Notes: generated by a model from the letters alone, not told the origin. A stretch of DNA of 64,000 nt from a virus (IMGVR_UViG_3300032308_002092:87208-151207); one strand, 5' to 3'. Counted from the first letter of the stretch, positions 8,046 to 30,702 are shown. Numbers and translations are program-made.

Positions 8046-8105
8046 AGACTCGTCAGTCGCGTATACAACGCGAGACCAAGAGCGTGGCTACTCTTGGTTT
8101 CGTCT
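8046..8105 (-). ncRNA. Type II hammerhead ribozyme HH1 (3' of gene 8106-8612)
   Basis: Minus strand AGAC-GAAA-CCAAGAG(TAGCCACG)CTCTTGG-TC|TCGCGT(TGTAT)ACGCGA-CTGACGA-GTCT: full core, three perfect stems, GUC site; cleavage 8074/8073. Confidence 0.93.
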
Positions 8106-8636: not shown

Positions 8637-8693
8637 TGACTCATCAGTGCTGGAACCTACCAGCAGATACCCTTGGTATCGGGTATTTCGTCA
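8637..8693 (-). ncRNA. Type II hammerhead ribozyme HH2 (5' of gene 8106-8612)
   Basis: TGAC-GAAA-TACCC(GATACCAA)GGGTA-TC|TGCTGG(TAGGTT)CCAGCA-CTGATGA-GTCA; AUC site; cleavage 8666/8665. Confidence 0.93.
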
Positions 8694-8909
8694 TTAGTCT
8701 ATTGCTGCGTAGTCATCTGGGAAGAAGGTTTCTTCTTCCATCTGACGGCTATTGAAGTCTAGCTGCTCATACACATCGTCTTCATAGTCGGACAAATAGA
8801 TATAATCTTGGTTGATTTGCACCGTGTTCACGACCATACCATCGGGCATAACCACGGTTGAATTAGGATCTTGTTGCGAAAGAATCTTAATGAGTTCTGA
8901 AACCAGCAT
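8694..8909 (-). CDS. Small acidic hypothetical protein
   Basis: MLVSELIKILSQQDPN start, SD AAGGAGG. Confidence 0.7.
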   Translation of the reverse strand: MLVSELIKILSQQDPNSTVVMPDGMVVNTVQINQDYIYLSDYEDDVYEQLDFNSRQMEEETFFPDDYAAID

Positions 8910-8950
8910 ATCAAACCTCCTTTATTTACTTGTGCATATTGATTCGGGAA

Positions 8951-9355
8951 TCATGACCTGAGTGTTAGTCTAGTTCCATCTGGCATCGTCGTATAGCTTA
9001 CGTCGGATGGTAAGGCACTGGTCACTCTAGTGAAGGTTTCTAGTTGCTTGCCTTTACCATCGAACGATCGCGCGCAGCCTGTGCCATCACACAAGATGAA
9101 TGAGTCTTGGTTGTAAGTCTGAGCCATGCTCTTCATCAAGTCAAACAACGACCAGCCTATGGTGTTAGGCGAACCACTTACAAGCCAAACATTCTCCATC
9201 TGATCTTTGTAAGATCCTCTGACGTACGTAGTTTTAAACCCATTCATCCTAATGAAGAAGCCTAGCTGCTCATGATCCTGCATATTTCTAATGTCGTCTT
9301 TGTCGCTTTTGTCTGCGGAGATCAGAGCGAAGATAGTATCTAAATCTAGTTTCAT
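8951..9355 (-). CDS. Hypothetical phage protein
   Basis: ALISAD..GSYK..AQTYNQDSFI pattern (DUF3293-like, tentative). Confidence 0.6.
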   Translation of the reverse strand: MKLDLDTIFALISADKSDKDDIRNMQDHEQLGFFIRMNGFKTTYVRGSYKDQMENVWLVSGSPNTIGWSLFDLMKSMAQTYNQDSFILCDGTGCARSFDGKGKQLETFTRVTSALPSDVSYTTMPDGTRLTLRS

Positions 9356-9718
9356 GTTAACCCCACTTTCGTTTGTTTGCTAAAACACAAAGTACACCAA
9401 AGAATAAAGATATTAAGAACTTGAAAAAAGCATACTCAAGATTGCCGTTAATCAAATCAAACCATCCAAATACCTGTAGGAAGATACTTACGATAAACAG
9501 CGCGATGGCTAAGTTCACTTGCCTCTCCTTACGATCAGGAGGATCGCGGTAATTATTTTCTTAAAAAAGTCAATCATCTTTCTCTCCTTCTTTTTCTGGG
9601 TGAAATTTATCGAGCACCTTAGCGAAGATCATCAGCAGCAGTACTGTTACTGCGAGCCCACCGATTATTGATATCGGTATCGCGACTCCAATAGCTATAA
9701 CGTAAAGCAATATACTCA

Positions 9719-9925
9719 TTAGCTAACTTCCTCGCTTTCCTCGTAGATGTACCAGTCATTGGGCTTAAGACTAGCTGTCTTCTGCTCATACTCGTGTTTG
9801 CCGTATGAATACGCGAAGGCTCTGCCGTTCCAAACTATGAACGGAGCTGGGTGATCTTTGTGTGAGATCTTAGCTCCCTTGAGGGCCTCAATCAATGCTT
9901 CTTCTAGAGTCATGATCAGCTCCAA
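9719..9925 (-). CDS. Hypothetical protein
   Basis: MTLEEALIEALKGAKI...NDWYIY, a common phage small-protein pattern. Confidence 0.55.
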   Translation of the reverse strand: MELIMTLEEALIEALKGAKISHKDHPAPFIVWNGRAFAYSYGKHEYEQKTASLKPNDWYIYEESEEVS

Positions 9926-10060
9926 TCGTTAGGGTCTTTGTTTTTGCCCTTGACTTCTTCGTAGAAGATAATACAAAGCAATCCCACCATGAAGATGCCA
10001 CCAAAGAAACCCGCTATAGAAATTGCAGCCATGAATCCTGTTAATGCTGAGTCCACGATA

Positions 10061-10411
10061 TTACTCTCCTAGTATTTGTTGCTCTATTTGTTGCGTCATA
10101 TATTTGTCTAACGTGAACTGAATAACATGGTTGTGAACATCTTTTACCTTTAGATAAACCGAATGAGGTGTTAGATCGCCTCTTGAATTCAGATAGCAGT
10201 TCGCTACTAGCTTAAAGGAATAAGGGGTTTTTGGATGTTTTATGGTCTTAGATACTGTGGTGTACGACTTACCTTTTCGCTTAGCACACTCTTTAACAGC
10301 ATAATGGTAGTGAGAGATAAGGGCGTCTAGGGTAAATTCGCTGCCTTCTACTGGACCCAGGCTTAGGTCTATGATTGTTCTATGCTCTCCAGTAACCGTA
10401 AATAAACACAT
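10061..10411 (-). CDS. Hypothetical protein
   Basis: ORF downstream of a CCGAAAC motif. Confidence 0.6.
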   Translation of the reverse strand: MCLFTVTGEHRTIIDLSLGPVEGSEFTLDALISHYHYAVKECAKRKGKSYTTVSKTIKHPKTPYSFKLVANCYLNSRGDLTPHSVYLKVKDVHNHVIQFTLDKYMTQQIEQQILGE

Positions 10412-10459
10412 GTTGCTAACCCCTACTCGTTATCGTTGAATAGTATTGGTTTCGGATAC

Positions 10460-10696
10460 TCACTTAAGGTCTTGTGTCTCTGAGTAGAGAAGGTGTGACA
10501 TAGAGTCCATCACCACAAGAGTACTCTGCTTGCCATACTTAGACACCATGTCTGCCTTGAGGGAGCGAAACTCAGCTCTACACTTCTCTCGCTCTGCGAC
10601 TTCTCTGAAGTATTGTCTACCCTCGGCGGCCTCGTAGTAAGAGAGATCAGCTATGGATACTATAAATTTTTTGATTAGCTCGCAATTGTAGTTCAT
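10460..10696 (-). CDS. Hypothetical protein
   Basis: ATG 10696 with SD GGAGG. Confidence 0.65.
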   Translation of the reverse strand: MNYNCELIKKFIVSIADLSYYEAAEGRQYFREVAEREKCRAEFRSLKADMVSKYGKQSTLVVMDSMSHLLYSETQDLK

Positions 10697-10725
10697 GCAA
10701 CCTCCAATAAGATATTGGATCGGGA

Positions 10726-10956
10726 TCACCTATCGGATGGGTTGCCGTGGCCGTTATCGCATAAGTCTTCTCCACAGCCAGCGCCACCGCCACACCCATC
10801 ACCATAACCGTTGCCATCGCCATAGCCATCACCACTAGGGCTGCAATTACTTAAACCACAGCCATAACCATCGCCGCTTTTCTTAATATAGTTGTCACCA
10901 TTGGGTCTACCGTAATGGTAACCGTAGCTAAAACCATCTATTTCTAGAGATTCCAC
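10726..10956 (-). CDS. Gly/Asp/Tyr-rich IDG..PSD family micro-protein 1
   Basis: SLEIDG start, GYG/GDG repeats, PSDR end. Confidence 0.75.
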   Translation of the reverse strand: MESLEIDGFSYGYHYGRPNGDNYIKKSGDGYGCGLSNCSPSGDGYGDGNGYGDGCGGGAGCGEDLCDNGHGNPSDR

Positions 10957-10962
10957 GATAGC

Positions 10963-11181
10963 TCACCAATCAGATGGGTAGTGATCGAACCGATCTTCGG
11001 TGCCACTACCGCAACCATCACCATACTCATCGCTATGTCCATCACCTCTGCCATAACCGTCGCCGTCAGCAGTGCCACCACTTAAACCCCAACCATCACC
11101 ATCGCTGTAAGTATGACTATCGCCGTTGGCCATGCCGTAACGATCGCCGTAACCAAAAGCATCTATTTTTAGAGATTTCAT
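10963..11181 (-). CDS. IDG..PSD family micro-protein 2
   Basis: SLKIDA start, GDG repeats, PSDW end. Confidence 0.75.
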   Translation of the reverse strand: MKSLKIDAFGYGDRYGMANGDSHTYSDGDGWGLSGGTADGDGYGRGDGHSDEYGDGCGSGTEDRFDHYPSDW

Positions 11182-11201
11182 GGTTTATTCTCAGTCTGAG
11201 A

Positions 11202-11537
11202 TTAAAGCCACTTATTCAAGTCAGCTTTCATCACAAAGATATCCTTACCGAAGATCGTACCAGCTTCGTTTAGCACAGTCTCAGCCTGAGGACCTTCGAC
11301 GCACAGCTGGCCGAGACCCTTGGTCGTACCCCATCGGTGGATGTTGTAGGCGTTGTCAAGCCTGATTCTCTCGCTGGAGAGGCGAGTAACGAAGCCGATG
11401 AATACCCAACCGCGATCCATGACTGCGATGACTAGATCGCCGTTCTCATAGTCAAGCTTAGGCTGAGGTGCGCCTCGCAAAGACTCCTCAACCTGACTGT
11501 TGATTACATAATTACCGAATAACTTACTCTTAGCCAT
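11202..11537 (-). CDS. Conserved phage protein, possible Sm/SH3-like beta-barrel
   Basis: VIAVMDRGWVFIG...LDNAYNIHRWGTTKGLGQL; SD AAGGAGG. Confidence 0.7.
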   Translation of the reverse strand: MAKSKLFGNYVINSQVEESLRGAPQPKLDYENGDLVIAVMDRGWVFIGFVTRLSSERIRLDNAYNIHRWGTTKGLGQLCVEGPQAETVLNEAGTIFGKDIFVMKADLNKWL

Positions 11538-11674
11538 AATAAACCTCCTTTGTTTCTGTCTATATTTATATCGGAAATGATACTCTGTGGACCGTTACAA
11601 TCCTCTTTCGCTGTTATACATCAGAAATACAATCGCAACAGTGAAACCAAGTATAAGTAGCGCAAATACACTCA

Positions 11675-11890
11675 TTAAGAAATCTCGCTTGCTTCTACGT
11701 ATTGGCTGAAGATTTCTGGGTATCTTTGTACGTAACCGTTGTCTTCTAGGAAGTAGTACAGAGCTACACCAGGTGGTACTTCGTCATCGAAGTTGCTCCG
11801 CCAAGCGTAGTCTTCGAAGTCACTCGTAGTTAATCCCGTGACCTTAACACACAGCTTATCTACTTTGTTCATGTAAGACTTGAAAGACAT
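11675..11890 (-). CDS. Hypothetical protein
   Basis: ORF downstream of a CCGAAAC motif. Confidence 0.65.
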   Translation of the reverse strand: MSFKSYMNKVDKLCVKVTGLTTSDFEDYAWRSNFDDEVPPGVALYYFLEDNGYVQRYPEIFSQYVEASEIS

Positions 11891-11948
11891 ACAAACCCCT
11901 TATTGAAGACACCCCATCGTTGGGATATATAATCTGGTTTCGGGATTC

Positions 11949-12143
11949 TCACCAGTCTGATAGATCATCGTAGCCATAACAGTCACCGTAGCTCTCTCCA
12001 TCACCATTTCCATAGCCGTATCCGCTACCACTACCGTCGTATTCTGTAATGATGATGATATTAGGGCCTTCAGAGCCGCTGTCGCCGTCACCGTTATAGT
12101 GGCCGTCACCACAACCCCAGCCATCTATTTCTAGCTTGTCCAT
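11949..12143 (-). CDS. IDG..PSD family micro-protein 3
   Basis: MDKLEIDG...LSDW. Confidence 0.75.
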   Translation of the reverse strand: MDKLEIDGWGCGDGHYNGDGDSGSEGPNIIIITEYDGSGSGYGYGNGDGESYGDCYGYDDLSDW

Positions 12144-12149
12144 TGCTCT

Positions 12150-12389
12150 TCACTTATCTGACGGGCCGTGATGGCCCTTGCCACTGCCATCTCCAACAAC
12201 GAGATCTTGCCCCAGACAATTTAGATCATAACCATAGCCATCGCCATTAGGGAGGCTGTCTCCGTAGCCACAGCCATACCTCTCTCCATCGTAGCCATAA
12301 CCATAGTTCCCATGGACACCACTGCCATCGCCGCAGAAGTAACCGTGAAAGCGTCCATAACCTAAGCCGTCTATGTCTAGCTTGTCCAT
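12150..12389 (-). CDS. IDG..PSD family micro-protein 4
   Basis: MDKLDIDG...PSDK. Confidence 0.75.
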   Translation of the reverse strand: MDKLDIDGLGYGRFHGYFCGDGSGVHGNYGYGYDGERYGCGYGDSLPNGDGYGYDLNCLGQDLVVGDGSGKGHHGPSDK

Positions 12390-12392
12390 GGT

Positions 12393-12689
12393 TTATGCTT
12401 TACGCTTCTTCTTTTGGCCGTCTTTGATGGCCTGAACCTCTGCTTGGTCAAGCGGGACACCGTGGCGGTACCAGCTATCACCCCACACCGCGCCGTCTTC
12501 CCAGTAGGTTATAGCAGGGCTACCCTCACGATGTAACCTACCTTGGCAATACCAATACTCGGTGTCTACCTTGCCGTCTTCGCTATAGTAGACAATGGCA
12601 GGGCCATCCACACGATGTGGAACACCCTCCTCCAGGTATCGCTCGGACTCTACCTTACCGTTTTCGTAGTGTTTCTTAACGCACTCCAT
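12393..12689 (-). CDS. MORN-variant (HRxDGPA) repeat protein
   Basis: YENGKV..HRVDGPAI, EDGKV..LHREGSPAI repeats. Confidence 0.8.
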   Translation of the reverse strand: MECVKKHYENGKVESERYLEEGVPHRVDGPAIVYYSEDGKVDTEYWYCQGRLHREGSPAITYWEDGAVWGDSWYRHGVPLDQAEVQAIKDGQKKKRKA

Positions 12690-12701
12690 AAATCTCCTTG
12701 A

Positions 12702-12941
12702 TTACCAATCTGAAGGCATGTCATGATCATCACCTGAACCCCAGCCGTTGCCGTGGTTGTAGGACGTATCACCATAGCCAACACCATCGCGATAAATTGG
12801 GTGATAGCCACGACCATGGAGATCACTGCCACCATTGCCCCAGCCATCCCCACTCGCCATGGAGTATTCACCTTCTCCCTCGCCGTTACCATCCCACCAA
12901 CAGTCTGGTGAGCCGTCGCCATCTATGTCTAGCTTTTCCAT
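12702..12941 (-). CDS. IDG..PSD family micro-protein 5
   Basis: MEKLDIDG...MPSDW. Confidence 0.75.
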   Translation of the reverse strand: MEKLDIDGDGSPDCWWDGNGEGEGEYSMASGDGWGNGGSDLHGRGYHPIYRDGVGYGDTSYNHGNGWGSGDDHDMPSDW

Positions 12942-12948
12942 AAGTTAG

Positions 12949-13215
12949 TTACCAATCTGAGGGTTCTAAATCTTCCCCATCACCAGCACCATCTCCACCG
13001 GTGTCGCCACCAGAACCGTCGCAATAACCATCACCGCCGAGGGTGGTATAACCGCTGCCTCTTCCGTCGCCGGTTCCAGTGCCGCAGTCGCCGTCGCCAT
13101 AGCGATCGTCTGGTATAGAGGGGCTATAGCAACCTATACCGCCGTCCCCATTAGGGGACGTTCTGTCTACACCACAACCAAATCCATCCACAGCGAGCTT
13201 GCTTTCTAATATCAC
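12949..13215 (-). CDS. IDG..PSD family micro-protein 6
   Basis: KLAVDG...EPSDW. Confidence 0.75.
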   Translation of the reverse strand: MILESKLAVDGFGCGVDRTSPNGDGGIGCYSPSIPDDRYGDGDCGTGTGDGRGSGYTTLGGDGYCDGSGGDTGGDGAGDGEDLEPSDW

Positions 13216-13227
13216 TTAATATGTCCT

Positions 13228-13461
13228 CTACCAGTCAGAAGGGTCACCCTCAGGCTGTATCTCATGGAATTGGATGAATGTCATAGAATCGGATTTTGTG
13301 AGTTCGTGTTCGCCGTAGCCATAGCCGTCACCATTTGGTTTGGTTCTGCCTATGAAGCTATCTGGCGTTTTTACGCCCTCTCCAAAGCCGTCGCCATGTA
13401 TCCTACCGTATTGACCATAGCCGTAGCCAACTCCGTCTACGATCGTCTCGCCTATCTTCAT
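13228..13461 (-). CDS. IDG..PSD family micro-protein 7
   Basis: TIVDGVGYG...DPSDW. Confidence 0.75.
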   Translation of the reverse strand: MKIGETIVDGVGYGYGQYGRIHGDGFGEGVKTPDSFIGRTKPNGDGYGYGEHELTKSDSMTFIQFHEIQPEGDPSDW

Positions 13462-13927
13462 GGGTCCTCATATCCATTAAAGCTGCCCGCCAAGAAAAGC
13501 CGCCCGCCAAGAACGCTATTGAGCTTAACGTAGTTAAACTCTTCTTTTGAGGTTCGCTTAAGTGTTTCAAGCATAAATAGCTTCTTGGCTTCCTCTGATT
13601 CCATCACTTTGATACCATCTACCCAGATGCTGCATTCCGGACTACATATCTCTTCATACCCAGCCTTATATCCAGCAGCGGACACCTCTTCTAAAGTGAG
13701 AGGCTGGTCTTTGATGGCCTCATACATTTCTCGCACCTGTTCATACGACACTTCTGTTTTGCGATGAGGACCCCCAGTTTGTTGAGAGCCGTTCTCACTA
13801 CCTCCTTGACCATTATGGGAAACCATTAGGCCCATCACTATAAACGCCGCCGCCGCACCCATTACTTACCCTCCTCTTTCTTACACAACACCTATCTTCA
13901 TAGGTCCTCATATCCATTAAAGCTGCC
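13451..13927. repeat. 37-bp direct repeats (13451-13487, 13891-13927) flanking one gene
   Basis: CCTATCTTCAT[G/A]GGTCCTCATATCCATTAAAGCTGCC, 1 mismatch. Confidence 0.9.
13458..13862 (-). CDS. Hypothetical protein between direct repeats
   Basis: SD GAGGAGG; hydrophobic N-terminus. Confidence 0.6.
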   Translation of the reverse strand: MGAAAAFIVMGLMVSHNGQGGSENGSQQTGGPHRKTEVSYEQVREMYEAIKDQPLTLEEVSAAGYKAGYEEICSPECSIWVDGIKVMESEEAKKLFMLETLKRTSKEEFNYVKLNSVLGGRLFLAGSFNGYEDP

Positions 13928-14198
13928 ACCATTTACGTGGGGTGCGTGGGACACTTGCATGAGGATGCGGCTTTTCTATCTCAAGGTGCCGAATGGCTAC
14001 AACATCAAATAGCTCTATCCCATTCGTGTTGCGACCCTCTTTATCAACGTAAACACAGGAAGCAACCCCCGGAGCAAACAGCACCATTAAATAAAACGCC
14101 GGTGACCAATCAGCGCGTTCGTTGAATTCAACAAACGAACCCACTAGTCCGTTTCTAAGTGTGATCTCGTCCCAAGCCTTTAGTTTTGTAATATCCAT
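13917..14198 (-). CDS. Hypothetical protein
   Basis: SD AAGGAGG. Confidence 0.65.
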   Translation of the reverse strand: MDITKLKAWDEITLRNGLVGSFVEFNERADWSPAFYLMVLFAPGVASCVYVDKEGRNTNGIELFDVVAIRHLEIEKPHPHASVPRTPRKWWQL

Positions 14199-14238
14199 AA
14201 TGGCCTCCTTTTTATAGTAATTTTAATACACTAATCAT

Positions 14239-14548
14239 TCCCAAACTTCAATCTCACCAGTCAGCTCAACTACCTGAACCGGCTCACCTTAGGTATCTCA
14301 AATACAGAAACATCCTCGTCCCTTAGATTTTCAGTCTTGCCTATGGGAATTCTTATCTCATACAAAACCCCATCGCTACCTGTCACGCGAGTGTATCCAC
14401 GTTCTTTCAAGCTTGAGAGCTGCTCCCTCGTGAGGTCCTCAAAGATTTCTATGGGCACAGGTCCTTTGTCTGTCAAGAACCCTTCTTCAATTAACCGGTC
14501 AATTACTTTAGACATATTACAAACTACTCCCAAACTTCAATCTCACCA
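14239..14548. repeat. 21-bp direct repeats (14239-14259, 14528-14548) flanking one gene
   Basis: TCCCAAACTTCAATCTCACCA, exact. Confidence 0.85.
14270..14515 (-). CDS. Hypothetical protein
   Basis: ATG 14515 (MSKVID) with GGAG upstream. Confidence 0.55.
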   Translation of the reverse strand: MSKVIDRLIEEGFLTDKGPVPIEIFEDLTREQLSSLKERGYTRVTGSDGVLYEIRIPIGKTENLRDEDVSVFEIPKVSRFR

Positions 14549-14757
14549 CTCCGAAGGGGTCTCCCTTAGTATCCCTGTCTCTTGTACCTGCAAAATGGGC
14601 ACCGAACAACAGTCTAACATTACCTTGAGAACCGAAGTCCTCATCAAAGACTGGCAGGCTTCGTCCCATGCCTCACACTCCAACTACATACAGAACGAAG
14701 ATCCCTATCAGGATGGCAGCCCAAACCCCAATTAGTATCTCCATAGTCCCTATCCCC

Positions 14758-14952
14758 TTAAAGCAGGCTCAGTATGAAGCCTAGCACCACCAAGAACACC
14801 CAAAGCACCACAGAGTACAAAACAACAGTCAAGTACCATAGCCACAAAGCGGTCATCCCGACTATCTCTCTGAAGCCGGGGATAGACATCAAACCGCATA
14901 CTGCAGCTATAGCCAACACCAGTACGACCACCCTTGCCAGTAAGCGCCGCAT
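14758..14952 (-). CDS. Small membrane protein
   Basis: Two hydrophobic segments; SD GGAGG. Confidence 0.6.
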   Translation of the reverse strand: MRRLLARVVVLVLAIAAVCGLMSIPGFREIVGMTALWLWYLTVVLYSVVLWVFLVVLGFILSLL

Positions 14953-15023
14953 AACCCCTCCCCATATCGTGATTCATATACCTTCGGAATATAACTCAAG
15001 GGTCTGATGCCCACTTCCCACCC

Positions 15024-15233
15024 CTACTTAAACTTACAGCTCAAACCAGCTTTATTCAGGCCGTTATATCTATAGCAAATCACTTCGCTATTCTCTAGTC
15101 TGTACACACCAAAACCAACCGCCTTAGCTTCGCTAAAGCCATACTCACCGTCAACACCTCCATCAACGTTAGGCTCAGATACCCTAAAAGTACATCCGCT
15201 CAATACAATCAATCCAACCACTAGCACCTTCAT
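15024..15233 (-). CDS. Small lipoprotein
   Basis: MKVLVVGLIVLSGC lipobox; SD GGAGG. Confidence 0.7.
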   Translation of the reverse strand: MKVLVVGLIVLSGCTFRVSEPNVDGGVDGEYGFSEAKAVGFGVYRLENSEVICYRYNGLNKAGLSCKFK

Positions 15234-15289
15234 AAACCCCTCCCCACAATTACCCTACAACTATCCATTATCAATTCGGAATCCCATAC

Positions 15290-16250
15290 CTTACCTTCCC
15301 CAAACCCTGGGTGGAAGATATAGTAACCGCCGTAACTAACTTATAAACCCCTAAAATAACCTCTTATAACAACCTATACCCACCTATACCCAGTTATAAC
15401 TACCTACTAATCCCTATACCCTCAAATACCCTAATCCCCTACGTAACTACTACTATTAGATACACTTAAGTGCCAAAACCTACCGTAACTAACACGTACG
15501 TATCACCTTAACCCCATACCATTCCCAACCAACCACCTATACCAGTTAGTAGCACGAAAGGGATAGGGAGTGGACTGGTAGAGTTATAGTGATAATGATC
15601 CTCACCATTACTATAGGAAAGACATAAAAACTATAGTGATTTAACTAGCCTAGGGCGAGCCTATAGGCAGGTTGTTTCCGCCCACAACTATCCCTACTCT
15701 CGCAACAACATCTCTCACTTGTGGCCACGCCGCGGTAACCTATAGGGTTACAAATCACCACGGTTTTGCCCACCTATAGGTTTACAGGTCGGGTATCCTG
15801 CTCCCTCCTACCCTATCCCTACAGATACCTCCCGGGTGGTTTGCGTGTTGTCCTAGGGGTAAATCGGGTGTCGAGGAAATCATTAGGCTTTTTGGTAGTT
15901 GGGTTGGGAATGGTGCTTTCCCCTAGGGGTAAAATGAGATAGGTGGGTGGCTTTGTTGATATTGCTAGAGATTTTAGTTTCGGGATGATAGGAGTGAGAG
16001 AAGTCCTAGGGAGTTTTGCTCGTTTTAGGGCTTCGGGTGTGGGGCGTAGCAGTGTCAGGTGGTTTGGTGGGGTTGTTGGGCTACGGGGTGGGATAATGAT
16101 ATCAGTGAGTTACGGGTGTTTTGGTGGCGCGAGTTGGTGCGCTTAGGGCTGGGGGTTTATATACACTTTTATTTTGTGGTCTTGAGTTGTAGTTGGGAGA
16201 GTAGGATAAGTAGGGTGCGAATTCAAGTTGTTTGGGGGTGGCTATGATAA
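15290..16250. other. Mirror-symmetric non-coding region; candidate replication origin or terminus/packaging region
   Basis: C-rich left arm, G-rich right arm, iterated ACCTATACC and CCGTAACTAAC, central CCTATAGG/CCTAGG palindromes, 13-bp inverted repeat 15518-15530/15902-15914. Confidence 0.55.
16045..16058 (+). repeat. CGTAGCAGTGTCAG box, copy 2
   Basis: Exact 14-mer. Confidence 0.85.
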
Positions 16251-16263
16251 GCCCGTAGCCCAA

Positions 16264-16506
16264 TCAGACTATATACTCTTCGTCTAGTGGCTCATCGTAT
16301 AGGTGAGCTATGGAGTGCCATGGTCCTGGGACTGTGAAGAGGTCTAAGTTGCCAGAGCGTATAGCGTGAGCCTTAGCCATAGCTTCGTCCATGTCAGAGT
16401 GAGAGGAAACTACCCACGTCACTAGGTTGTGGACTTCGGAATCCACCTTCACGATAGTGTCGAAAGTAGAGTGGTCGTACATCACGAAGTACCTAATAGG
16501 TTGCAT
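16264..16506 (-). CDS. Hypothetical protein
   Basis: SD TAAGGAG. Confidence 0.6.
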   Translation of the reverse strand: MQPIRYFVMYDHSTFDTIVKVDSEVHNLVTWVVSSHSDMDEAMAKAHAIRSGNLDLFTVPGPWHSIAHLYDEPLDEEYIV

Positions 16507-16589
16507 AACATAGTCTCCTTACTTAATGGACAAGTTAATGAAGATGAGAGTCATTATCAACAAGAATATAGCCGCTGTGCCTGGATCCA

Positions 16590-16805
16590 TCACTCTGTCT
16601 CTTCCACGGTTATGGTGTAGGACTTGTCGTACTGGTCCTTCACTATGATGGTGCGCTTAGGTGACCTAAAGCTACCGTCTTCGTTTAAGTCCATCTTTAT
16701 CTCTACGTTCCTGAGCTTTATCTCAGTCGCCTTAGGTATGGCCGCAGTGATCACATGAGTGATATAGTCGCAGTATGCTAATCTCAACCCGCTTGACTTA
16801 AACAT
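16590..16805 (-). CDS. Hypothetical phage protein
   Basis: SD TAAGGAGG. Confidence 0.7.
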   Translation of the reverse strand: MFKSSGLRLAYCDYITHVITAAIPKATEIKLRNVEIKMDLNEDGSFRSPKRTIIVKDQYDKSYTITVEETE

Positions 16806-16843
16806 AGTCGTTCCTCCTTATATAGGGGATGGTATCGGAAACC

Positions 16844-16906
16844 GGACTCATCAGCATGGCTATCAGCCATGGACCTAGGATCTCGAGCGAGTCCTAGGTT
16901 TCGTCC
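16844..16906 (-). ncRNA. Type II hammerhead ribozyme HH3 (3' of gene 16919-17365)
   Basis: GGAC-GAAA-CCTAGGA(CTCGCTCGAGA)TCCTAGG-TC|CATGGC(TGATA)GCCATG-CTGATGA-GTCC; cleavage 16872/16871. Confidence 0.93.
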
Positions 16907-16918
16907 TCGGTTACGGAC

Positions 16919-17365
16919 TTATCCCACCAGGGATCTCAAGTGCTCGGGTAGTGCGGAGAGGTCCACAGTCTTGGCAGCAGACTTAGGCTGTGGGCGGTTA
17001 GCTTCAATGAACGCTTCGAGCTCAGCTGTAACTTCAGATCCCTTAGCGATCAGAGCCGCTTTGAGAGCTAGAGCTTGCTTGAACTCTGGGCTACCAGATC
17101 GGCTACCAGGGTTCTTGACTTCGTGCTTGACCCCACCGTTGAGGGCAGGTGACTTACGGAGCCAGTTGCTGAGCAGACCTGAAGCGTAGCTTCGCGCCTT
17201 AGCTTCGCTGTACTCCTTGCTCAAGCTGATCTCTCCGTTCATGAGTCCCGCTACGAGCATACCGATTGCTTCCTTGCGTTGCTCACTAGTTAGGGTGACT
17301 GCTTCCGCAGTTACTCCAACGATTGACTGTACGATCTCTACGACTGCCTTTGATTGTGACTTCAT
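16919..17365 (-). CDS. Ribozyme-flanked family protein, paralogue B
   Basis: ATG 17365 with SD TAAGGAG; NWLRKSPALNGGVKHEVKNPGSRSG..LPEHLRSLVG. Confidence 0.85.
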   Translation of the reverse strand: MKSQSKAVVEIVQSIVGVTAEAVTLTSEQRKEAIGMLVAGLMNGEISLSKEYSEAKARSYASGLLSNWLRKSPALNGGVKHEVKNPGSRSGSPEFKQALALKAALIAKGSEVTAELEAFIEANRPQPKSAAKTVDLSALPEHLRSLVG

Positions 17366-17383
17366 ATGTAACACTCCTTAATT

Positions 17384-17440
17384 AGACTCATCAGTGCCAG
17401 AACCTACTGGCAGATACCCTTGCTATCGGGTATTTCGTCT
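17384..17440 (-). ncRNA. Type II hammerhead ribozyme HH4 (5' of gene 16919-17365)
   Basis: AGAC-GAAA-TACCC(GATAGCAA)GGGTA-TC|TGCCAG(TAGGTT)CTGGCA-CTGATGA-GTCT; cleavage 17413/17412. Confidence 0.94.
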
Positions 17441-17444
17441 TAAG

Positions 17445-17594
17445 TTACCGACAGTAGTGATCGGCGTAGTTGCAGTAGAAGTCATAGACTTCGTCGTCAG
17501 TCCACGAGTCACAAGAGTAGTCTACGTCATCGTTTCCCGCTGCGATCATCTGAGCGAGGATGATGTTCACCGTAGTGCGAAGCGAACCTCTCAT
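17445..17594 (-). CDS. 49-aa hypothetical protein
   Basis: Not in track; MRGSLRTTVN...YADHYCR with SD AAGGAG. Confidence 0.5.
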   Translation of the reverse strand: MRGSLRTTVNIILAQMIAAGNDDVDYSCDSWTDDEVYDFYCNYADHYCR

Positions 17595-17704
17595 ATGAAG
17601 CACTCCTTGGTTAATCAACCTTGGTTGGTTGATAGTTATATATGGTATCGGGAAACTGGGGCTGCATCGGATCGTGGGGCCGAGGTGTGGGTTCGGGTGC
17701 TGGG

Positions 17705-17718
17705 CGTAGCAGTGTCGG
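17705..17718 (+). repeat. CGTAGCAGTGTC box, copy 3
   Basis: CGTAGCAGTGTCGG. Confidence 0.8.
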
Positions 17719-17741
17719 GCTTCACGCAGACACCCTCGGTA

Positions 17742-17924
17742 TCACTCCAGACCCTTGCAGGAGCTAGCGTCGTTGCTCTCGTTGGCCTGACAAGCCACGT
17801 ACTTCTCGCTGCTTTCCTTGGAGTTAGCCACCGAGATCTCACCTACTACGTTGATGGAGGTGTTGACTACAACTCCGCCCACGATAGCGTACACACAGTA
17901 CAAGACCACTAGTTCGATGCCCAT
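17742..17924 (-). CDS. Small membrane protein
   Basis: Hydrophobic N-terminus. Confidence 0.5.
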   Translation of the reverse strand: MGIELVVLYCVYAIVGGVVVNTSINVVGEISVANSKESSEKYVACQANESNDASSCKGLE

Positions 17925-18016
17925 TATAATGCCCCTTATAAACCTTAAAGCCCACTTAAACTGCCATTCTAATAGCTAGAATGGTATTCTAAAATCTAGT
18001 ATGTTATACTTTGCCC

Positions 18017-18334
18017 TTACCCCGGCAAGTTCTGCTTGTAGTACAAGTCACCCCAGTCGATGTAGAAGTCCTCGACCTTAGCGTGATCCCAAGCGTCGGA
18101 CCACAGCTTGATATCCTCGTAGCTATCCATGCTCATCTCCCTGCCAGTCACCAACTTAAAGGCATCGTTCATGAACATATTAGCGTCTACGTAGTCATGC
18201 GAAGCGCACTCATGCTTATGGTTGTGCTTGTTAGCTTCGCATATATCAACCATAGTGGCTAGACCAAGCTCAGCCATCAGTAACTCGGAGAACTTTTCTG
18301 CTATCTGTTCGTGTAGCTCTACTTCGAAATCCAT
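18017..18334 (-). CDS. Hypothetical phage protein
   Basis: CASHDYVDANM motif. Confidence 0.7.
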   Translation of the reverse strand: MDFEVELHEQIAEKFSELLMAELGLATMVDICEANKHNHKHECASHDYVDANMFMNDAFKLVTGREMSMDSYEDIKLWSDAWDHAKVEDFYIDWGDLYYKQNLPG

Positions 18335-18489
18335 CGTTCACCCCGGTAAGTTGTCTAGTATAAAGTTAAGCTCTTCTACTACTTCGTCGGAAACAGGTTG
18401 ATCTAGTGCCTCATCAGGTACATCTGGGTAGTATTCCAGCTTGAATTCGTCCCAAGCGAACTGCATTAACTGTCTAAGCGTAAGTTCGT

Positions 18490-18699
18490 TCATTGTCCAC
18501 CTCTTTCTTCTAAGGCTTGATACACTCGCTTCAGTAGCTCTGTGGGTTCGGTATAGAAATCATCCTTATCTAACTGCACCATATCCAGGTTTATCAGCGC
18601 CTGACTGAACCTCATATCGGGATAGGTCCTCAAGTAGGTCTCTAGTATCCGTAGTAGCTCCAAGTTAGCATGTAGTCGGACGCTCGTTGGTTGACTCAT
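18490..18699 (-). CDS. Hypothetical phage protein
   Basis: YPDMRFSQAL..DFYTEP pattern; SD AGGAGG. Confidence 0.7.
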   Translation of the reverse strand: MSQPTSVRLHANLELLRILETYLRTYPDMRFSQALINLDMVQLDKDDFYTEPTELLKRVYQALEERGGQ

Positions 18700-18998
18700 A
18701 ATAACCTCCTAGTTACATATAGATATAGATTCGGATACGACTATCAGAACCACTCACCCTTTCTTACAATCACCACTCTACTCGCTGTATTGACTATCAT
18801 CGCTCTTCTCCTTCTGCCATCGGAGAAGTATCTCATAGCCTCTTGTAAAGCAGAGAATGAGTGTATAGTCATGAAAGACCGTGCATCAGTTGAGCCGTGC
18901 CAAACCTGAACTTGATACATAATAAACTCCAATGTGTAAGAGAACTTTGTTATTCTCTTATTAATAATATATAGTTACGGGAATTAAATTCCCCTGGG

Positions 18999-19012
18999 CG
19001 TAGCAGTGTCAG
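18999..19012 (+). repeat. CGTAGCAGTGTCAG box, copy 4
   Basis: Exact 14-mer. Confidence 0.85.
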
Positions 19013-19047
19013 ATAGTGGTATAATACCCTTAGGTTAAGGAGAACAC

Positions 19048-19524
19048 ATGGAAAAGCTAATCAAGCATAGCAACGGGCAGTGGACACTAGTTAAGGCCAA
19101 GGACACTAGTAAGCACGGCAACTTCGGTGGTGGTAACTCCTTTGACGGAGGAGACCAGTATGTCCCCTCTAAAGAGGGTATTGCAGCAAACGCGGCTAGA
19201 GCAGCGGAGCAGAAACGCCTAGAAGCAGAAGCGAGCGCAGTATCGGCTGCACACAAAGATGTAGCCGACAGAGGCGAAGTTCGCCGACGCACCGAGCCGC
19301 CGAAAACCGTAGAAGATCACCCACTACACGGCGAGTTAGTTAATCACTTCAAGAACAAGCATGGGTTGGACCATCACGCTGCGTTTGCTGCGGCTACTCA
19401 TGTCATGACTTCGGGCCTCGGCGAAAAGACTCATGAAAGTGACTCAGATAAAGCAGCTACTGGTTCTGGAGCAGCCGAGGCCAAGAAGATCCTGGCTGGT
19501 AAGGTTAAGACCAAGATCTCTTAG
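19048..19524 (+). CDS. Hypothetical protein, possible internal virion protein
   Basis: Only well-supported plus-strand gene in the early region; GGTATAAT at 19018-19025 and SD TAAGGAG. Confidence 0.75.
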   Translation: MEKLIKHSNGQWTLVKAKDTSKHGNFGGGNSFDGGDQYVPSKEGIAANAARAAEQKRLEAEASAVSAAHKDVADRGEVRRRTEPPKTVEDHPLHGELVNHFKNKHGLDHHAAFAAATHVMTSGLGEKTHESDSDKAATGSGAAEAKKILAGKVKTKIS

Positions 19525-19529
19525 TCGTC

Positions 19530-19796
19530 TTATATAAGACCTTGTTCACTCAGTTGCTTCATCAGTGAATCATCATTCTTAGACCCAAAGACTCTCACTA
19601 CATCCTCATAATCACATAGTTCATCGGGGTCGTCGTGACATACGAACGCTAGTCCTTCGACTGTCTTCCACACTGAGAACTCATATATGCAGTGAACTCC
19701 TGTCTCTACGTAACCATCAGGTTCAGTGATTGAGCCATCGAACATCTTCCCCGCTTCTAACTCTGCAACAAGTTGATCGACTGTGAACTTACTCAT
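19530..19796 (-). CDS. Acidic hypothetical protein (tandem paralogue 1)
   Basis: TGVHxIYxFxVWxTxEGLxFxCxxDPDE shared with 19873-20139. Confidence 0.8.
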   Translation of the reverse strand: MSKFTVDQLVAELEAGKMFDGSITEPDGYVETGVHCIYEFSVWKTVEGLAFVCHDDPDELCDYEDVVRVFGSKNDDSLMKQLSEQGLI

Positions 19797-19813
19797 AGTG
19801 ACTCCTTAAAGTT

Positions 19814-19873
19814 AGACTCATCAGTGTGACTCTTAGTCACAGACTATCTTCGTTTCGGAAGATAGTTTCGTCT
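19814..19873 (-). ncRNA. Type II hammerhead ribozyme HH5
   Basis: AGAC-GAAA-CTATCTTC(CGAAAC)GAAGATAG-TC|TGTGAC(TAAGA)GTCACA-CTGATGA-GTCT; cleavage 19842/19841. Confidence 0.94.
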
Positions 19874-20139
19874 TATGCGAGACCTACTGCACTCAGCTGC
19901 TGATCAAGAGTGTCGTCTTCCTTATCCTCCTCGAAGAACCGCTTGACATCGTCGTAAGTTAGTATCTCATCGGGGTCTTCAGTGCATATGAACCTCAAAC
20001 CTTCGTCAGTGTCCCACACCTCGAAGTCGTATATGGAGTGAACACCGGTGCTCACGCCTCCGTGTGACAGGAACTCACCTGCAGTTAGTCTACCATCGGC
20101 GATCGCTTCTTCTAACTCTCTGACTGTGATCTTACTCAT
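19873..20139 (-). CDS. Acidic hypothetical protein (tandem paralogue 2)
   Basis: Paralogue of 19530-19796; SD GAGGAG. Confidence 0.8.
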   Translation of the reverse strand: MSKITVRELEEAIADGRLTAGEFLSHGGVSTGVHSIYDFEVWDTDEGLRFICTEDPDEILTYDDVKRFFEEDKEDDTLDQQLSAVGLA

Positions 20140-20257
20140 GACTTCTCCTCATGTTGTTCACACATTAATAGAATCGGAAAACACACTAATAAATATTTAA
20201 GTTTTTCAACTCATTTATTTATTAATAATATATAGTTTCGGAAACTATATCCCTGGG

Positions 20258-20271
20258 CGTAGCAGTGTCAG
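20258..20271 (+). repeat. CGTAGCAGTGTCAG box, copy 5
   Basis: Exact 14-mer, adjacent to GC hairpin 20273-20297. Confidence 0.85.
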
Positions 20272-20304
20272 TGGGTACGGGCACCACGCCCGCACCCAAC
20301 TCAC

Positions 20305-20754
20305 TTAGCCAACCAACTTCTGGAGGTGCTCGGGAAGCGCTGAGATATCCACGGTCTTCTCGGTCTTCACCGGAGCGTTGGCTGCGATGAACATCAGGAG
20401 CCCAGTAGGAATCTCCTTGCCTTGCTCAGCCAAGTACTTCTTAAGCGCGATCGCTTGCTTGTACTCATTGCTCCCACTTCGTGAGCCTGGGTTCTTAGCT
20501 ACGTACTTCACTCCGCCATTCAACTCGGGCGACTTACGTACCCAGTTGTCCAGCAGTCCCACCGAGTAACTCCTCATCTTCTCGGGAGTGTCGTGCTTAG
20601 CCCGAGCACCCGCGCTCATATCAATCTCACCATCAACCAAGCCTTGTGTGATCAGAGTCAAGCACTCTTCTTTCTGCTCCTTGGTCAACTTAACTCCGGG
20701 AGTAAATCCCTCGATCCCACTCACGATCGCTACGACTGCATCTACTTGCTTCAT
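20305..20754 (-). CDS. Ribozyme-flanked family protein, paralogue C
   Basis: NWVRKSPELNGGVKYVAKNPGSRSG..LPEHLQKLVG; SD TAAGGAG. Confidence 0.85.
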   Translation of the reverse strand: MKQVDAVVAIVSGIEGFTPGVKLTKEQKEECLTLITQGLVDGEIDMSAGARAKHDTPEKMRSYSVGLLDNWVRKSPELNGGVKYVAKNPGSRSGSNEYKQAIALKKYLAEQGKEIPTGLLMFIAANAPVKTEKTVDISALPEHLQKLVG

Positions 20755-20772
20755 GTAACACTCCTTAAAGTT

Positions 20773-20829
20773 AGACTCATCAGTGCAACCACTTAGTTGC
20801 AGATACCCTTGCTATCGGGTATTTCGTCC
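20773..20829 (-). ncRNA. Type II hammerhead ribozyme HH6 (5' of gene 20305-20754)
   Basis: GGAC-GAAA-TACCC(GATAGCAA)GGGTA-TC|TGCAAC(TAAGTG)GTTGCA-CTGATGA-GTCT; cleavage 20802/20801. Confidence 0.93.
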
Positions 20830-21173
20830 TCACTTCTTCTTGAACACTAGTTCCTTAATCACATCGGATACAGTCAGAACTGCGAATCCCCCGACTAGAA
20901 CAACCATCAACATCCACGAGAGTTGCCAGAGATAGATCAGGTAAATCAATTCCATCGGATCCTCCTTGTAGAGATAGTTAGAATCGGGGAGGTTATTCTC
21001 ACCCGTTTCCTTCAGTAAGGGGAGGTAATATCGGGAAGTATACCCGCTAGCCTCTGCTTACAGGGAACCCCTTGTTTCGGAAGTACCGATGAGGGTGCCT
21101 AAACACTCTCTACATACTACTTTTACAACTATTGCCATAAGGGATAAACAACCATACCCACCGCCCTTACCCT

Positions 21174-21836
21174 CTATAGACGCCCACTAGCCTTAAAACG
21201 ACTCTTGGGTACTGGTACCCCAAGCTCCTTACATGCCTTCTCAGTTATCTCCCGCTTCCTGAGCCACTCCTTAAGCCTTGCCTTCTCCGCTTCCACTTCT
21301 AGCGCTACCTCACGAGCTTCCCTCTCCCTCGCCTCTCTGTACTTAGCCTCGCCCTTAGCACGAGCCACGGCTATCATCTTAGCCTTTGCCTCTTCTCTCG
21401 TCATCCCGCTGTAGTCGGGTCTAGGCTCGGCCGGCTTAGGCGGCACCGCGTTTGCCACAACGGCGACACCGGATATCTCCGCATCTAGGTAACGAGCCTT
21501 GGCCCAGATCGCATCGATCTTGTCTTGGCTCAGCCATACCGATGCAGGCTTCTGGTTCTTGTCACGGTTGCAGGTCATGCACAAAGGAACCACGTTTAGG
21601 CGCTTGGTGCCGGTAGTCTCGACGAGGACGAAGTCACCGCCGTTGCACTTCGGCACGAAGAAGTGGTCTAGCTCCATGCCGTTGTCGTTGGCACCGCAGT
21701 TGGCACAGGCGCAGTCAAAGGCCTTTAGCAGCTTTAGGGTGTAGCTGCGGCGGAAGCCTTGCTCCCTAGCCGAGTAGCGCTTGTACGAGTTCTGATCTGT
21801 TTTGTATAGGGATGGGTCTTCACTTGGTCTTGTCAC
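21174..21836 (-). CDS. HNH endonuclease
   Basis: CANCG..ELDHFFVPKCNGG..NVVPLCMTCNRDK. Confidence 0.88.
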   Translation of the reverse strand: MTRPSEDPSLYKTDQNSYKRYSAREQGFRRSYTLKLLKAFDCACANCGANDNGMELDHFFVPKCNGGDFVLVETTGTKRLNVVPLCMTCNRDKNQKPASVWLSQDKIDAIWAKARYLDAEISGVAVVANAVPPKPAEPRPDYSGMTREEAKAKMIAVARAKGEAKYREAREREAREVALEVEAEKARLKEWLRKREITEKACKELGVPVPKSRFKASGRL

Positions 21837-21907
21837 GATTGTCTCCTCATATCACGTAGACGAGGAGGGTATGGGATCGGGGAATATTGGGGGTAGGGCC
21901 GATCGAC

Positions 21908-22507
21908 TTACTTCAGGAACAAGGCTCTTTCTGCTTGGCGGCGCCTAGTTAGGCCAGCCATCACTTGGCCTTTTGCTTTATCCCACTTTAAGAACTCATC
22001 TGCGGCTTCTTGGAACTTACCCTCGTTGACTCGCTTAAGTAGGGTGGATCCACTTAAGTTACCGACGCCGCAATTGTATGCGAAGCTAACTAGCGCGGAG
22101 AACTGGTTGTCGTTTATGTTCGAGGTGACTAGATCATTTACTTGTTTGCAGAACCTCTCTAGGTCTGTTGTCTTTCTCTGGTCCGCTTGGACTTGGGTCC
22201 ACTGCGTGTTTGGTCCGATCTTCGTGGGCTTGCCCTGCGCATCTAGGTTGAAGTAGTCTAAGCCGGTTGATCCCCAGCCGACTGTCCAAGGGTCGCCTGA
22301 CATATTTTCCCAACCCTTGACCCTCTTACTTAAAATCTTTCTTAGTTGTTGGGCTAGGGCTGAGGCCGGGTCCGCATAGGCCTTTAGGACGCAAGACTCG
22401 TAGGACTTTATCAAGTCCATGCCTTCTTTAGTTATAGTTCTCACTTTGTCGTCTCCTTCTTTTGGAGGTTCAGGGATAATATTCTTCACCATATCGAATA
22501 CGTTCAT
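21908..22507 (-). CDS. Endolysin (GH24 phage lysozyme)
   Basis: LIKSYE..LKAYADP, WTVGWGST, NQFSALVSFAYNCG, GLTRRRQAERALF. Confidence 0.94.
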   Translation of the reverse strand: MNVFDMVKNIIPEPPKEGDDKVRTITKEGMDLIKSYESCVLKAYADPASALAQQLRKILSKRVKGWENMSGDPWTVGWGSTGLDYFNLDAQGKPTKIGPNTQWTQVQADQRKTTDLERFCKQVNDLVTSNINDNQFSALVSFAYNCGVGNLSGSTLLKRVNEGKFQEAADEFLKWDKAKGQVMAGLTRRRQAERALFLK

Positions 22508-30111: not shown

Positions 30112-30702
30112 ATGGCCAACAAAGCTCCATTCTTCATTAGTGGTGGAAATGCGAAGTTACGCGTAAACGGCGTAACCTTAGCGTATGTTACCGATTTCAA
30201 ATACTCTATTAAGATCAATCATACAGATGTCAGAATACTCGGCGTGTACGAACATGACACAGCAGAACCTATGTCTTACGACGTAGACGGAAGCTTTACT
30301 ATAATCCGTTACGTAGAGGGCATGGTCAAGAGAGCCAAAGACAAACGTCAAGCAGTACCCAACGGTGCCAGCAATGCCGGTAACGGTGTTGGCAGCTGGA
30401 CTAGGGGTTCGAGCACAGCTATTGGTAGACTTAAGGCGGGTCAGTTCAATGACGGTCGCGCCAATGAAGCTTTAGATCCGAGCACATTCCAAAACTCTAC
30501 GTGGTTCGATATAGAGTTCTATCAGAAGATCGGCAACGGCCAAACCGGCGTGGCTCGCATACGCAACTGTAAAATTACCAGTGCCGAGTCCCAAGTGGGT
30601 AAGCGAGGTCTCATGACCCAGACCTTCACGTTTATCGCGAATGCAGTAGATGAAGACTCCTTTATTGCAAACTCATCGGGCGTTGGTCAAACTACGGCGT
30701 AA
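30112..30702 (+). CDS. Tail tube paralogue 2
   Basis: Clear similarity to 29468 (NAKLRVNGVTLAY, GNGVGSW, KRGLMTQTF). Confidence 0.75.
   Translation: MANKAPFFISGGNAKLRVNGVTLAYVTDFKYSIKINHTDVRILGVYEHDTAEPMSYDVDGSFTIIRYVEGMVKRAKDKRQAVPNGASNAGNGVGSWTRGSSTAIGRLKAGQFNDGRANEALDPSTFQNSTWFDIEFYQKIGNGQTGVARIRNCKITSAESQVGKRGLMTQTFTFIANAVDEDSFIANSSGVGQTTA

Follow-up and report, generated by a model that had tools for sequence, protein, structure and literature searches.

The DNA analyzed here is a 64,000-nucleotide (nt) stretch of the uncultured phage record IMGVR_UViG_3300032308_002092 (positions 87208 to 151207), referred to below as the window and numbered from its first letter. The whole record measures 151 kb and carries tail sheath, baseplate, and endolysin genes, i.e., those of a contractile-tailed phage. 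Two hammerhead ribozymes, HH6 and HH5, lie in what is probably an early, small-gene region, where the minus strand reads, from 20955 to 19530, a 41-amino-acid (aa) open reading frame (ORF), HH6, an AAGGAG leader, a gene termed paralogue C, a 165-nt spacer, an 88-aa ORF, HH5, a leader, and a second 88-aa ORF. The initial annotation had read the interval between the ribozymes as one 960-nt unit of two genes that could be excised, and had proposed that a ribozyme plus its Shine-Dalgarno (SD) sequence acts as a portable expression module. HH5, HH6, paralogue C, the hairpin behind it, and the 88-aa ORFs were all found at the positions given there, on the minus strand, and HH5 indeed lies between tandem paralogues (19873-20139 and 19530-19796) that are 49% identical. 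Nonetheless, the evidence points to another organization, in which HH6 and HH5 are probably active type II hammerheads in two distinct units, each insulating the gene downstream of it, with a 960-nt RNA arising only by read-through and with exchangeable junctions.

HH6 and HH5 as type II hammerheads

Both elements consist, in this order, of the 3′ strand of stem II, GAAA, a loop-capped stem III, the UC at which cleavage is predicted, a loop-capped stem I, CUGAUGA, and the 5′ strand of stem II. The core is complete (CUGAUGA, GAAA, and C17, a non-G residue), and the helices, with the A15.1-U16.1 and 10.1-11.1 pairs in place, comprise an open stem II of 4 bp, a stem III of 6 or 9 bp, and a stem I of 7 bp. 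All 16 distinct copies collected from this phage and from five related contigs keep this core, two of them with CUGACGA instead of CUGAUGA. When each element was folded, the three-way hammerhead junction was both the minimum-energy and the centroid structure. The predicted cuts, after C20802 and C19842, bound a segment from 20801 to 19842, whose length we recomputed as exactly the 960 nt first reported. A structural descriptor identified six type II hammerheads in the 151-kb record, all on the minus strand between window positions 8046 and 20829 (12.8 kb), and matched only once across 40 simulated genomes, corresponding to about 0.03 expected per genome. In both ribozyme-bearing intercistronic spacers the stop codon is followed by the ribozyme, the SD sequence, and the start codon, and stop codons adjoin or overlap stem II in four of the six window hammerheads, HH5 and HH6 included.

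A scan of the window with Rfam at the gathering threshold gave no matches, and on the whole genome the Hammerhead_II model (RF02276, clan CL00010) scored two other copies only, at 29.4 and 26.1 bits, below its 37-bit gathering threshold. Because this model does not report HH5 or HH6, we built our own covariance model (R1) from the three most similar copies. It recovered 18 copies, i.e., all 6 in the window and 12 in related contigs, with E values from 1e-26 to 1e-5, and none in the distant loci; HH6 scored 85.8 bits and HH5 41 bits (E about 1e-10). In an alignment of the 16 distinct copies, 99.6% of the pair cells hold standard pairs and 13 of the 16 pairs show double-sided changes, counts that lean towards the structure since the alignment was fitted to the model; the orthologous copies were found independently through synteny. 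The covariation score was 0.907, compared with 0.26 in shuffles (0 of 500 reached 0.907), and pairing fell to about 30% in a control in which the partners were slid. We conclude that HH5 and HH6 are genuine hammerheads, their self-cleavage being predicted. As the curated model misses this well-formed type II subgroup, such elements are probably under-counted in phage genomes.

The leader reported to be shared by the two ribozymes forms part of a 23-nt identity, at 19802-19824 and 20761-20783, that covers the CUGAUGA core, a stem II strand, the leader, and the SD sequence; it occurs exactly twice in the window and in none of 100 shuffles. Neither the shared leader nor the 5′ half of HH6 had an exact match in IMG/VR. 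In most, though not all, type II hammerheads, loop I forms a pseudoknot of 4 or more bp with the tail that follows stem II. The possible pairing between loop I and tail amounts here to 4 bp in HH6 and 3 bp in HH5, values that shuffled tails equaled in 14 to 24% of trials, and in the related contig L042 (contigs are designated by L numbers) the same leader is present, yet loop I is not complementary to it. A loop I/leader pseudoknot is no better than chance and is not claimed as the reason for the shared leader. With flanking sequence included, 5 further pairs, formed by the end of the 41-aa ORF (20829-20845) with the leader ACUUU (20761-20772), can lengthen stem II of HH6, so that the ACUU segment of the leader may either extend stem II or pair with loop I.

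A short motif, YCCGAWA, occupies the stem III loop region of 9 of the 10 distinct gene-leading hammerheads in this phage and its close relatives, versus none of the five trailing ones. The observation covers stem III of the leading hammerheads at 8637-20829 in the window and positions 10265-10325 and 11275-11335 in L035, 1029-1091 and 1982-2039 in L041, and 1874-1934 in L042. The motif is retained between this phage and L035 although the stem III partner strand differs. It equals the first half of the promoter-like composite described below and is also present in the loops of several hairpins that precede a conserved box (L013, L018, and L043). It may be a protein recognition site.

Spacer cassette and gene exchange among related phages

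The elements of the region are the following.

20830..20955, minus strand: 41-aa ORF, predicted membrane peptide; its TGA stop immediately adjoins stem II of HH6
20773..20829, minus strand: HH6, type II hammerhead; predicted cut after C20802, giving a new 5′-OH end at 20801
20755..20772, minus strand: HH6 leader with the SD sequence AAGGAG; its first 12 nt (20761-20772) equal the first 12 nt of the HH5 leader (19802-19813)
20305..20754, minus strand: paralogue C, 149 aa, member of a phage-only, all-helical family (sequence searches and structural model)
20273..20297, minus strand: 10-bp GC-rich hairpin without a U-run; putative terminator/attenuator or 3′-end stabilizer
20253..20269, minus strand: 17-nt box
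20227..20242, minus strand: promoter-like composite, copy 1 (YCCGAWWC, then a TATA-like run), kept in L035
20186..20226, minus strand, limits approximate: AT-rich palindrome; a different palindrome takes its place in L035
20165..20178, minus strand: promoter-like composite, copy 2, ending about 25 nt ahead of the start codon of the 88-aa gene
19873..20139, minus strand: 88-aa ORF 1, with a 95% identical protein in L035; stem II of HH5 starts on the last base (A) of its TAA stop
19814..19873, minus strand: HH5, type II hammerhead; the predicted cut after C19842 would leave a 2′,3′-cyclic phosphate end there
19797..19813, minus strand: HH5 leader with the SD sequence for 88-aa ORF 2 (from sequence)
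19530..19796, minus strand: 88-aa ORF 2, in this genome only; opens an approximately 1-kb segment missing from L035
8023-8039, 16040-16056, 17700-17716, 18994-19010, and 20253-20269, minus strand: the five copies of the 17-nt box (sequence repeat)

The 165-nt spacer behind paralogue C thus contains, in order, the hairpin (20297-20273), confirmed as a 10-bp helix after the paralogue C stop, the box (20269-20253), and two composites starting at 20242 and 20178 with the AT-rich palindrome between them. The five minus-strand copies of the box in the window compare with 0.22 expected. It also occurs in IMG/VR and metagenome-assembled genome (MAG) contigs carrying the paralogue C family, mostly directly after a hairpin of variable sequence and before a CCGA/TATA motif. 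In the window and related contigs, most box copies follow a hairpin or a trailing hammerhead and precede a YCCGAWWC motif, and the hairpin-box-motif composite is found in at least 8 other contigs. All seven copies of the composite of YCCGAWWC and a TATA-like run lie on the coding (minus) strand and none on the plus strand, against an expectation of 1.27 ± 0.93 for each strand; the seven are intergenic and fall between 11944 and 20242. The box may be part of a terminator, an upstream element of a promoter, or a protein or recombination site. In L040, an 11-nt part of it is inverted after paralogue C.

Behind paralogue C, the cassette is also present in L035, L041, L043, and distant relatives and, in weaker form, in L042. 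The 20273-20297 hairpin is identical in L035, and the equivalent slot is taken in other relatives by hairpins of other sequence or by canonical terminators. L006 to L009 have a canonical terminator as the hairpin, its T8 run standing immediately ahead of the box, and further relatives have terminator-like hairpins after the gene of the paralogue C family. Behind paralogues A and B of the window, a trailing hammerhead stands in the slot of the hairpin and is followed by the box (hammerhead 8046-8105) or by the promoter-like motif (hammerhead 16844-16906); L042 also has a trailing hammerhead there. A sigma-70 scan gave one 10-of-12 match, at 20271-20244, which overlaps the box and whose -10 part is not kept in the other box copies, and the totals of the sigma-70 and intrinsic-terminator scans were not above those of shuffles. 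No T7-type RNA polymerase was found, but control genomes were equally empty, which makes this result uninformative. Outside the window, a 231-aa ORF of the same genome (G000:C1:39083-39226) has a weak, sub-threshold match to sigma70 region 2 (sigma70_r2, 20.4 bits), and its product may be a phage sigma-like factor that reads the promoter-like motifs. No hammerhead accompanies the two family paralogues and the at least four hairpin-box cassettes on the 146.7-kb contig LNEN01000305.1 (L046/L049), from a Cytophagales MAG bin, which in view of its size and content is probably a phage genome that ended up in the MAG.

The closest relative, L035, is collinear with window positions 30194 to 19801 at 81.5% nucleotide identity. 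An HH6 orthologue and a hammerhead at the position of HH5 bound a unit of 950 nt in this contig, and between them lie paralogue C, the hairpin, the box, the two promoter-like motifs, and the 88-aa gene. The spacer palindrome of L035 has been replaced by one resembling the cassette at window position 19010. Only about the first 13 nt of the L035 hammerhead at the HH5 position agree with HH5; it has another stem III, its stem I matches without change the one in the window hammerhead at 16844-16906, and an unrelated 63-aa gene follows. Homology breaks inside HH5, within a stretch that is otherwise about 95% identical, and collinearity ends at 19801. Window positions 18750-19800, about 1 kb that is missing from L035, contain the second 88-aa paralogue, a hairpin-box-promoter cassette (about 19010), and a 62-aa ORF, together with a plus-strand 158-aa ORF (19048-19524) that is convergent with the early genes. 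In its layout, this segment looks like a cassette-bounded insertion.

Homologues of paralogue C led to four more lineages (L039/L040, L041, L042, and L043 to L045), all syntenic from the endolysin gene onwards. A hammerhead lies directly ahead of paralogue C in every related lineage, with differing stem sequences: it is of the HH6 type in L035, L039, and L040, where the orthologues are near-identical, of the HH5 type in L041 and L042, whose best blastn match is window HH5 (80 to 83%), and of a third type in L043. Variation also affects the gene ahead of HH6, which encodes 41 aa here and 31 aa with a similar C terminus in L035, and an extra 80-aa gene lies between the counterpart of this small ORF and HH6 in L039/L040. 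In L040, an exact 60-nt copy of HH5 is located 43 nt past the stop of paralogue C and leads a homologue of window ORF 18490-18699, a gene preceded by a promoter-like motif in this phage and by the box plus a promoter-like motif in L042. The comparison of cassette positions across related phages proposed with the initial annotation thus places HH5-type ribozymes ahead of three different genes in different phages, which directly supports a portable ribozyme-plus-SD module in an evolutionary sense. The leader shared by HH5 and HH6 is also carried by the HH5-type ribozyme that leads paralogue C in L042, which suggests that HH5 derived from a paralogue-C-leading ribozyme. What held of the proposed module is accordingly the exchange of ribozyme plus SD, at least over evolution; the 960-nt two-gene RNA as the functional unit found no support in that form.

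Proposed transcription units and alternative readings

A second hammerhead about 950 nt downstream was found in three of six lineages (960 nt in this phage, 950 nt in L035, and 949 nt in L041), and the second gene it encloses differs, being the 88-aa gene here and in L035 and an unrelated 96-aa gene in L041. L040 has a one-gene unit of 572 nt, and L042 and L043 have no nearby downstream hammerhead. Because the cassette is kept in most relatives and the downstream hammerhead only in some, the conserved entity consists of the ribozyme, paralogue C, the hairpin, and the box. HH5 would belong to the next, promoter-led gene pair, and the hairpin-plus-promoter-like cassette lying between the ribozymes means that two separate messages are probably trimmed, rather than one two-gene RNA.

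In the mechanism that we propose, HH6 and HH5 would cut the transcript co-transcriptionally, leaving an upstream RNA that ends in the stem III hairpin with a 2′,3′-cyclic phosphate and a downstream mRNA that opens with a 5′-OH and the stem I hairpin, behind which the ribosome-binding site lies in a short fixed leader. Predicted folds of the cleavage product place the stem I hairpin at its very 5′ end. Unit 1 would begin at a promoter further upstream, take in the 41-aa ORF, HH6, and paralogue C, and end at the 20273-20297 hairpin, with a processed mRNA of about 529 nt. Unit 2 would start from the motifs at 20242 and 20178 and comprise 88-aa gene 1, HH5, and 88-aa gene 2, its 5′ fragment of about 320 to 380 nt ending at 19842. 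An RNA of 960 nt would form only when the hairpin is read through. Each downstream gene would be uncoupled from its upstream context, as in a natural counterpart of the synthetic RiboJ insulator. RNase E and RNase J degrade bacterial mRNA more slowly when its 5′ end bears a hairpin or is other than a monophosphate, and hairpins at the 3′ end impede exonucleases; individual cistrons should therefore be both uncoupled and stabilized.

Several results weigh against this account. RF02276 reported neither HH5 nor HH6 even at an E value of 10 or less in a 1.1-kb search, and when the HH5 region was folded with its flanks, the minimum-energy structure paired the core with downstream coding sequence instead. 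The intrinsic-terminator consensus scan made no call at the 20273-20297 hairpin, since the U-run is absent, no standard sigma-70 promoter is conserved across the box copies, and the bare YCCGAWW motif is not enriched, only its composite with the TATA-like run. Finally, the spacings of 960, 950, and 949 nt could hint at a constraint on a two-gene unit.

The last of these results, together with the missing U-run, favors the alternative that a 960-nt bicistronic RNA of paralogue C and 88-aa gene 1 is the main product, the hairpin being read through and the CCGA/TATA motifs not acting as promoters; hammerhead clusters have moreover been described as flanking short gene blocks (PMC3088659). Yet the second gene is not constant, the downstream ribozyme encloses a single gene in L040 and is missing nearby in L042 and L043, canonical terminators or trailing hammerheads occupy the slot of the hairpin elsewhere, and two promoter-like composites stand just upstream of the 88-aa gene, so that we regard this alternative as unlikely. 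Nor is the two-gene unit of the initial annotation supported as formulated. It is lower still in probability that cleavage is regulated, either by a factor bound to the stem III YCCGAWA or by ribosomes terminating at the stem II stop and tuning mRNA release, an idea compatible with the preferred reading of two insulated units. The bias of the motif towards leading ribozymes, its survival of a change in the partner strand, and the stop codons at stem II would fit such regulation, but the copies are related by descent and their counts are not independent, the binding factor is hypothetical, and the compact spacing may merely mirror a tight genome.

The predicted 5′-OH and 2′,3′-cyclic phosphate ends are those joined by RtcB, and the stem II strands of the two ribozymes show 4 bp of complementarity, so that a hybrid type II hammerhead could be rebuilt through stem II from the HH6 5′ half and the HH5 3′ half, which would draw the two ends to each other. 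Hammerhead-bounded RNAs, including the 960-nt read-through species, might in principle be ligated by host RtcB or by the reverse hammerhead reaction into circular, translatable mRNAs. However, the loop that the 4-bp helix must close would measure 960 nt, a terminator/promoter-like cassette lies inside the unit, which is not kept across relatives, and circular or spliced products of clustered phage hammerheads were sought and not found by Perreault et al. (PMC3088659), all of which makes circularization highly improbable. We consider it just as implausible that the motifs are decaying relics, or linkers for recombination at the DNA level, devoid of any RNA function. They do sit at synteny breakpoints, and Rfam does not score HH5 or HH6; however, the core is intact in 16 distinct copies and the helices are kept by compensatory changes, which indicates selection on the RNA fold and would be unexpected for relics.

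Known systems, neighboring proteins, and implications

Clustered prophage hammerheads flank single genes or short gene blocks and were proposed to cut long transcripts into gene- or operon-length mRNAs (PMC3088659). The present region has the same kind of layout, in that HH6 and HH5 bracket two ORFs within a set of six same-strand copies in 12.8 kb. It resembles the clusters of Perreault et al. (2011) in type II class and topology, in the several same-orientation copies within a few kilobases of phage DNA, and in the inconstancy of the flanked genes. It differs in that the copies are below the Rfam Hammerhead_II threshold or missed, that the ribozymes exchange gene contexts, and that an internal hairpin/promoter-like cassette splits the unit. 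The layout is therefore a further example of the kind described in 2011, to which it adds the escape from the curated model and the part played in cassette-like gene exchange.

The PeSL stem-loops of T4-like phages terminate transcription efficiently (Arbiol et al. 2010, PMC2839356), and PeSL cassettes mediate gene shuffling in these phages (Comeau et al. 2014, PMC4122927). By analogy, the ribozymes and hairpin-box-promoter cassettes described here probably act as exchangeable junctions for gene swapping over evolution. Both systems consist of small repeated intergenic cassettes of the stem-loop plus promoter type, located among ORFan early genes and at the boundaries of indels or replacements between close relatives. 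Unlike PeSL, however, the cassettes here have no evident conserved sigma-70 -35/-10 elements, their conserved part being the 17-nt box and YCCGAWWC-TATA, and self-cleaving ribozymes are junction elements as well; the promoter, terminator, and recombination activities of the cassettes are putative. RiboJ, which raises the expression of insulated genes (Clifton et al. 2018, PMC6206723), likewise places a hammerhead directly ahead of the ribosome-binding site, where it removes variable upstream RNA and leaves a standard hairpin at the 5′ end, but it is engineered, derived from a plant satellite RNA, and placed after a promoter, whereas HH6 and HH5 are natural type II elements between cistrons.

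Type II hammerheads near phage-like genes of Desulfovibrio vulgaris cleave in vivo, according to cyPhyRNA-seq (PMC8782182). Like the present ones, they lie beside hypothetical and phage-like genes; they occupy separate chromosomal loci, in contrast to the six-copy cluster in the early region of a lytic-type phage, for which cleavage is predicted. Viroids and retrozymes also have units that are bounded by two hammerheads and yield 5′-OH and cyclic-phosphate ends, but they use ribozymes of type III or type I, arranged in tandem repeats that pass through rolling-circle or retrotranscribed cycles, whereas the unit here is unrepeated and its ligation hypothetical.

What hammerheads do in bacteria and phages is so far a matter of proposals. 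The locus and its close relatives provide a clean natural experiment on this role: a given gene has a hammerhead ahead of it in one phage and a promoter-like cassette in another, one ribozyme leads three different genes, and trailing ribozymes and hairpins share one slot. Two ideas become directly testable, namely, that hammerheads define mRNA ends and insulate genes and that they are exchange points for gene shuffling.

The product of 88-aa ORF 1 has one near-identical homologue (95%) in public data, on the 72-kb contig L035; no relatives of the 88-aa proteins were detected beyond L035-type contigs, an IMG/VR pattern search was empty, and blastn of window positions 16000-22000 against the phage collection gave no match. 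Paralogue C, the two 88-aa proteins, the 41-aa ORF, and the 158-aa ORF of the plus strand were all without a match in Pfam and PHROGs. The AlphaFold model of paralogue C is confident and all-helical (pLDDT 86.8), and its comparison with the PDB gave no fold match. Its protein Atlas neighbors are hypothetical phage clusters only. One protein that is 87% identical to it, P0004, is annotated as "ribosomal protein S18," a name that is probably spurious because no Pfam, PHROG, or fold evidence backs it. The three paralogues of the window are 37 to 56% identical to paralogue C, and the homologues in other contigs are 26 to 87% identical. A general tie of the family to hammerheads was rejected, since a hammerhead lies upstream in only 1 of 17 IMG/VR homologue loci and in none of 4 MAG loci; all five close lineages do have one ahead of paralogue C. 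In the IMG/VR contig L020, a cluster of nine tRNA genes (1497-2552) lies just upstream of a distant homologue of the paralogue C family.

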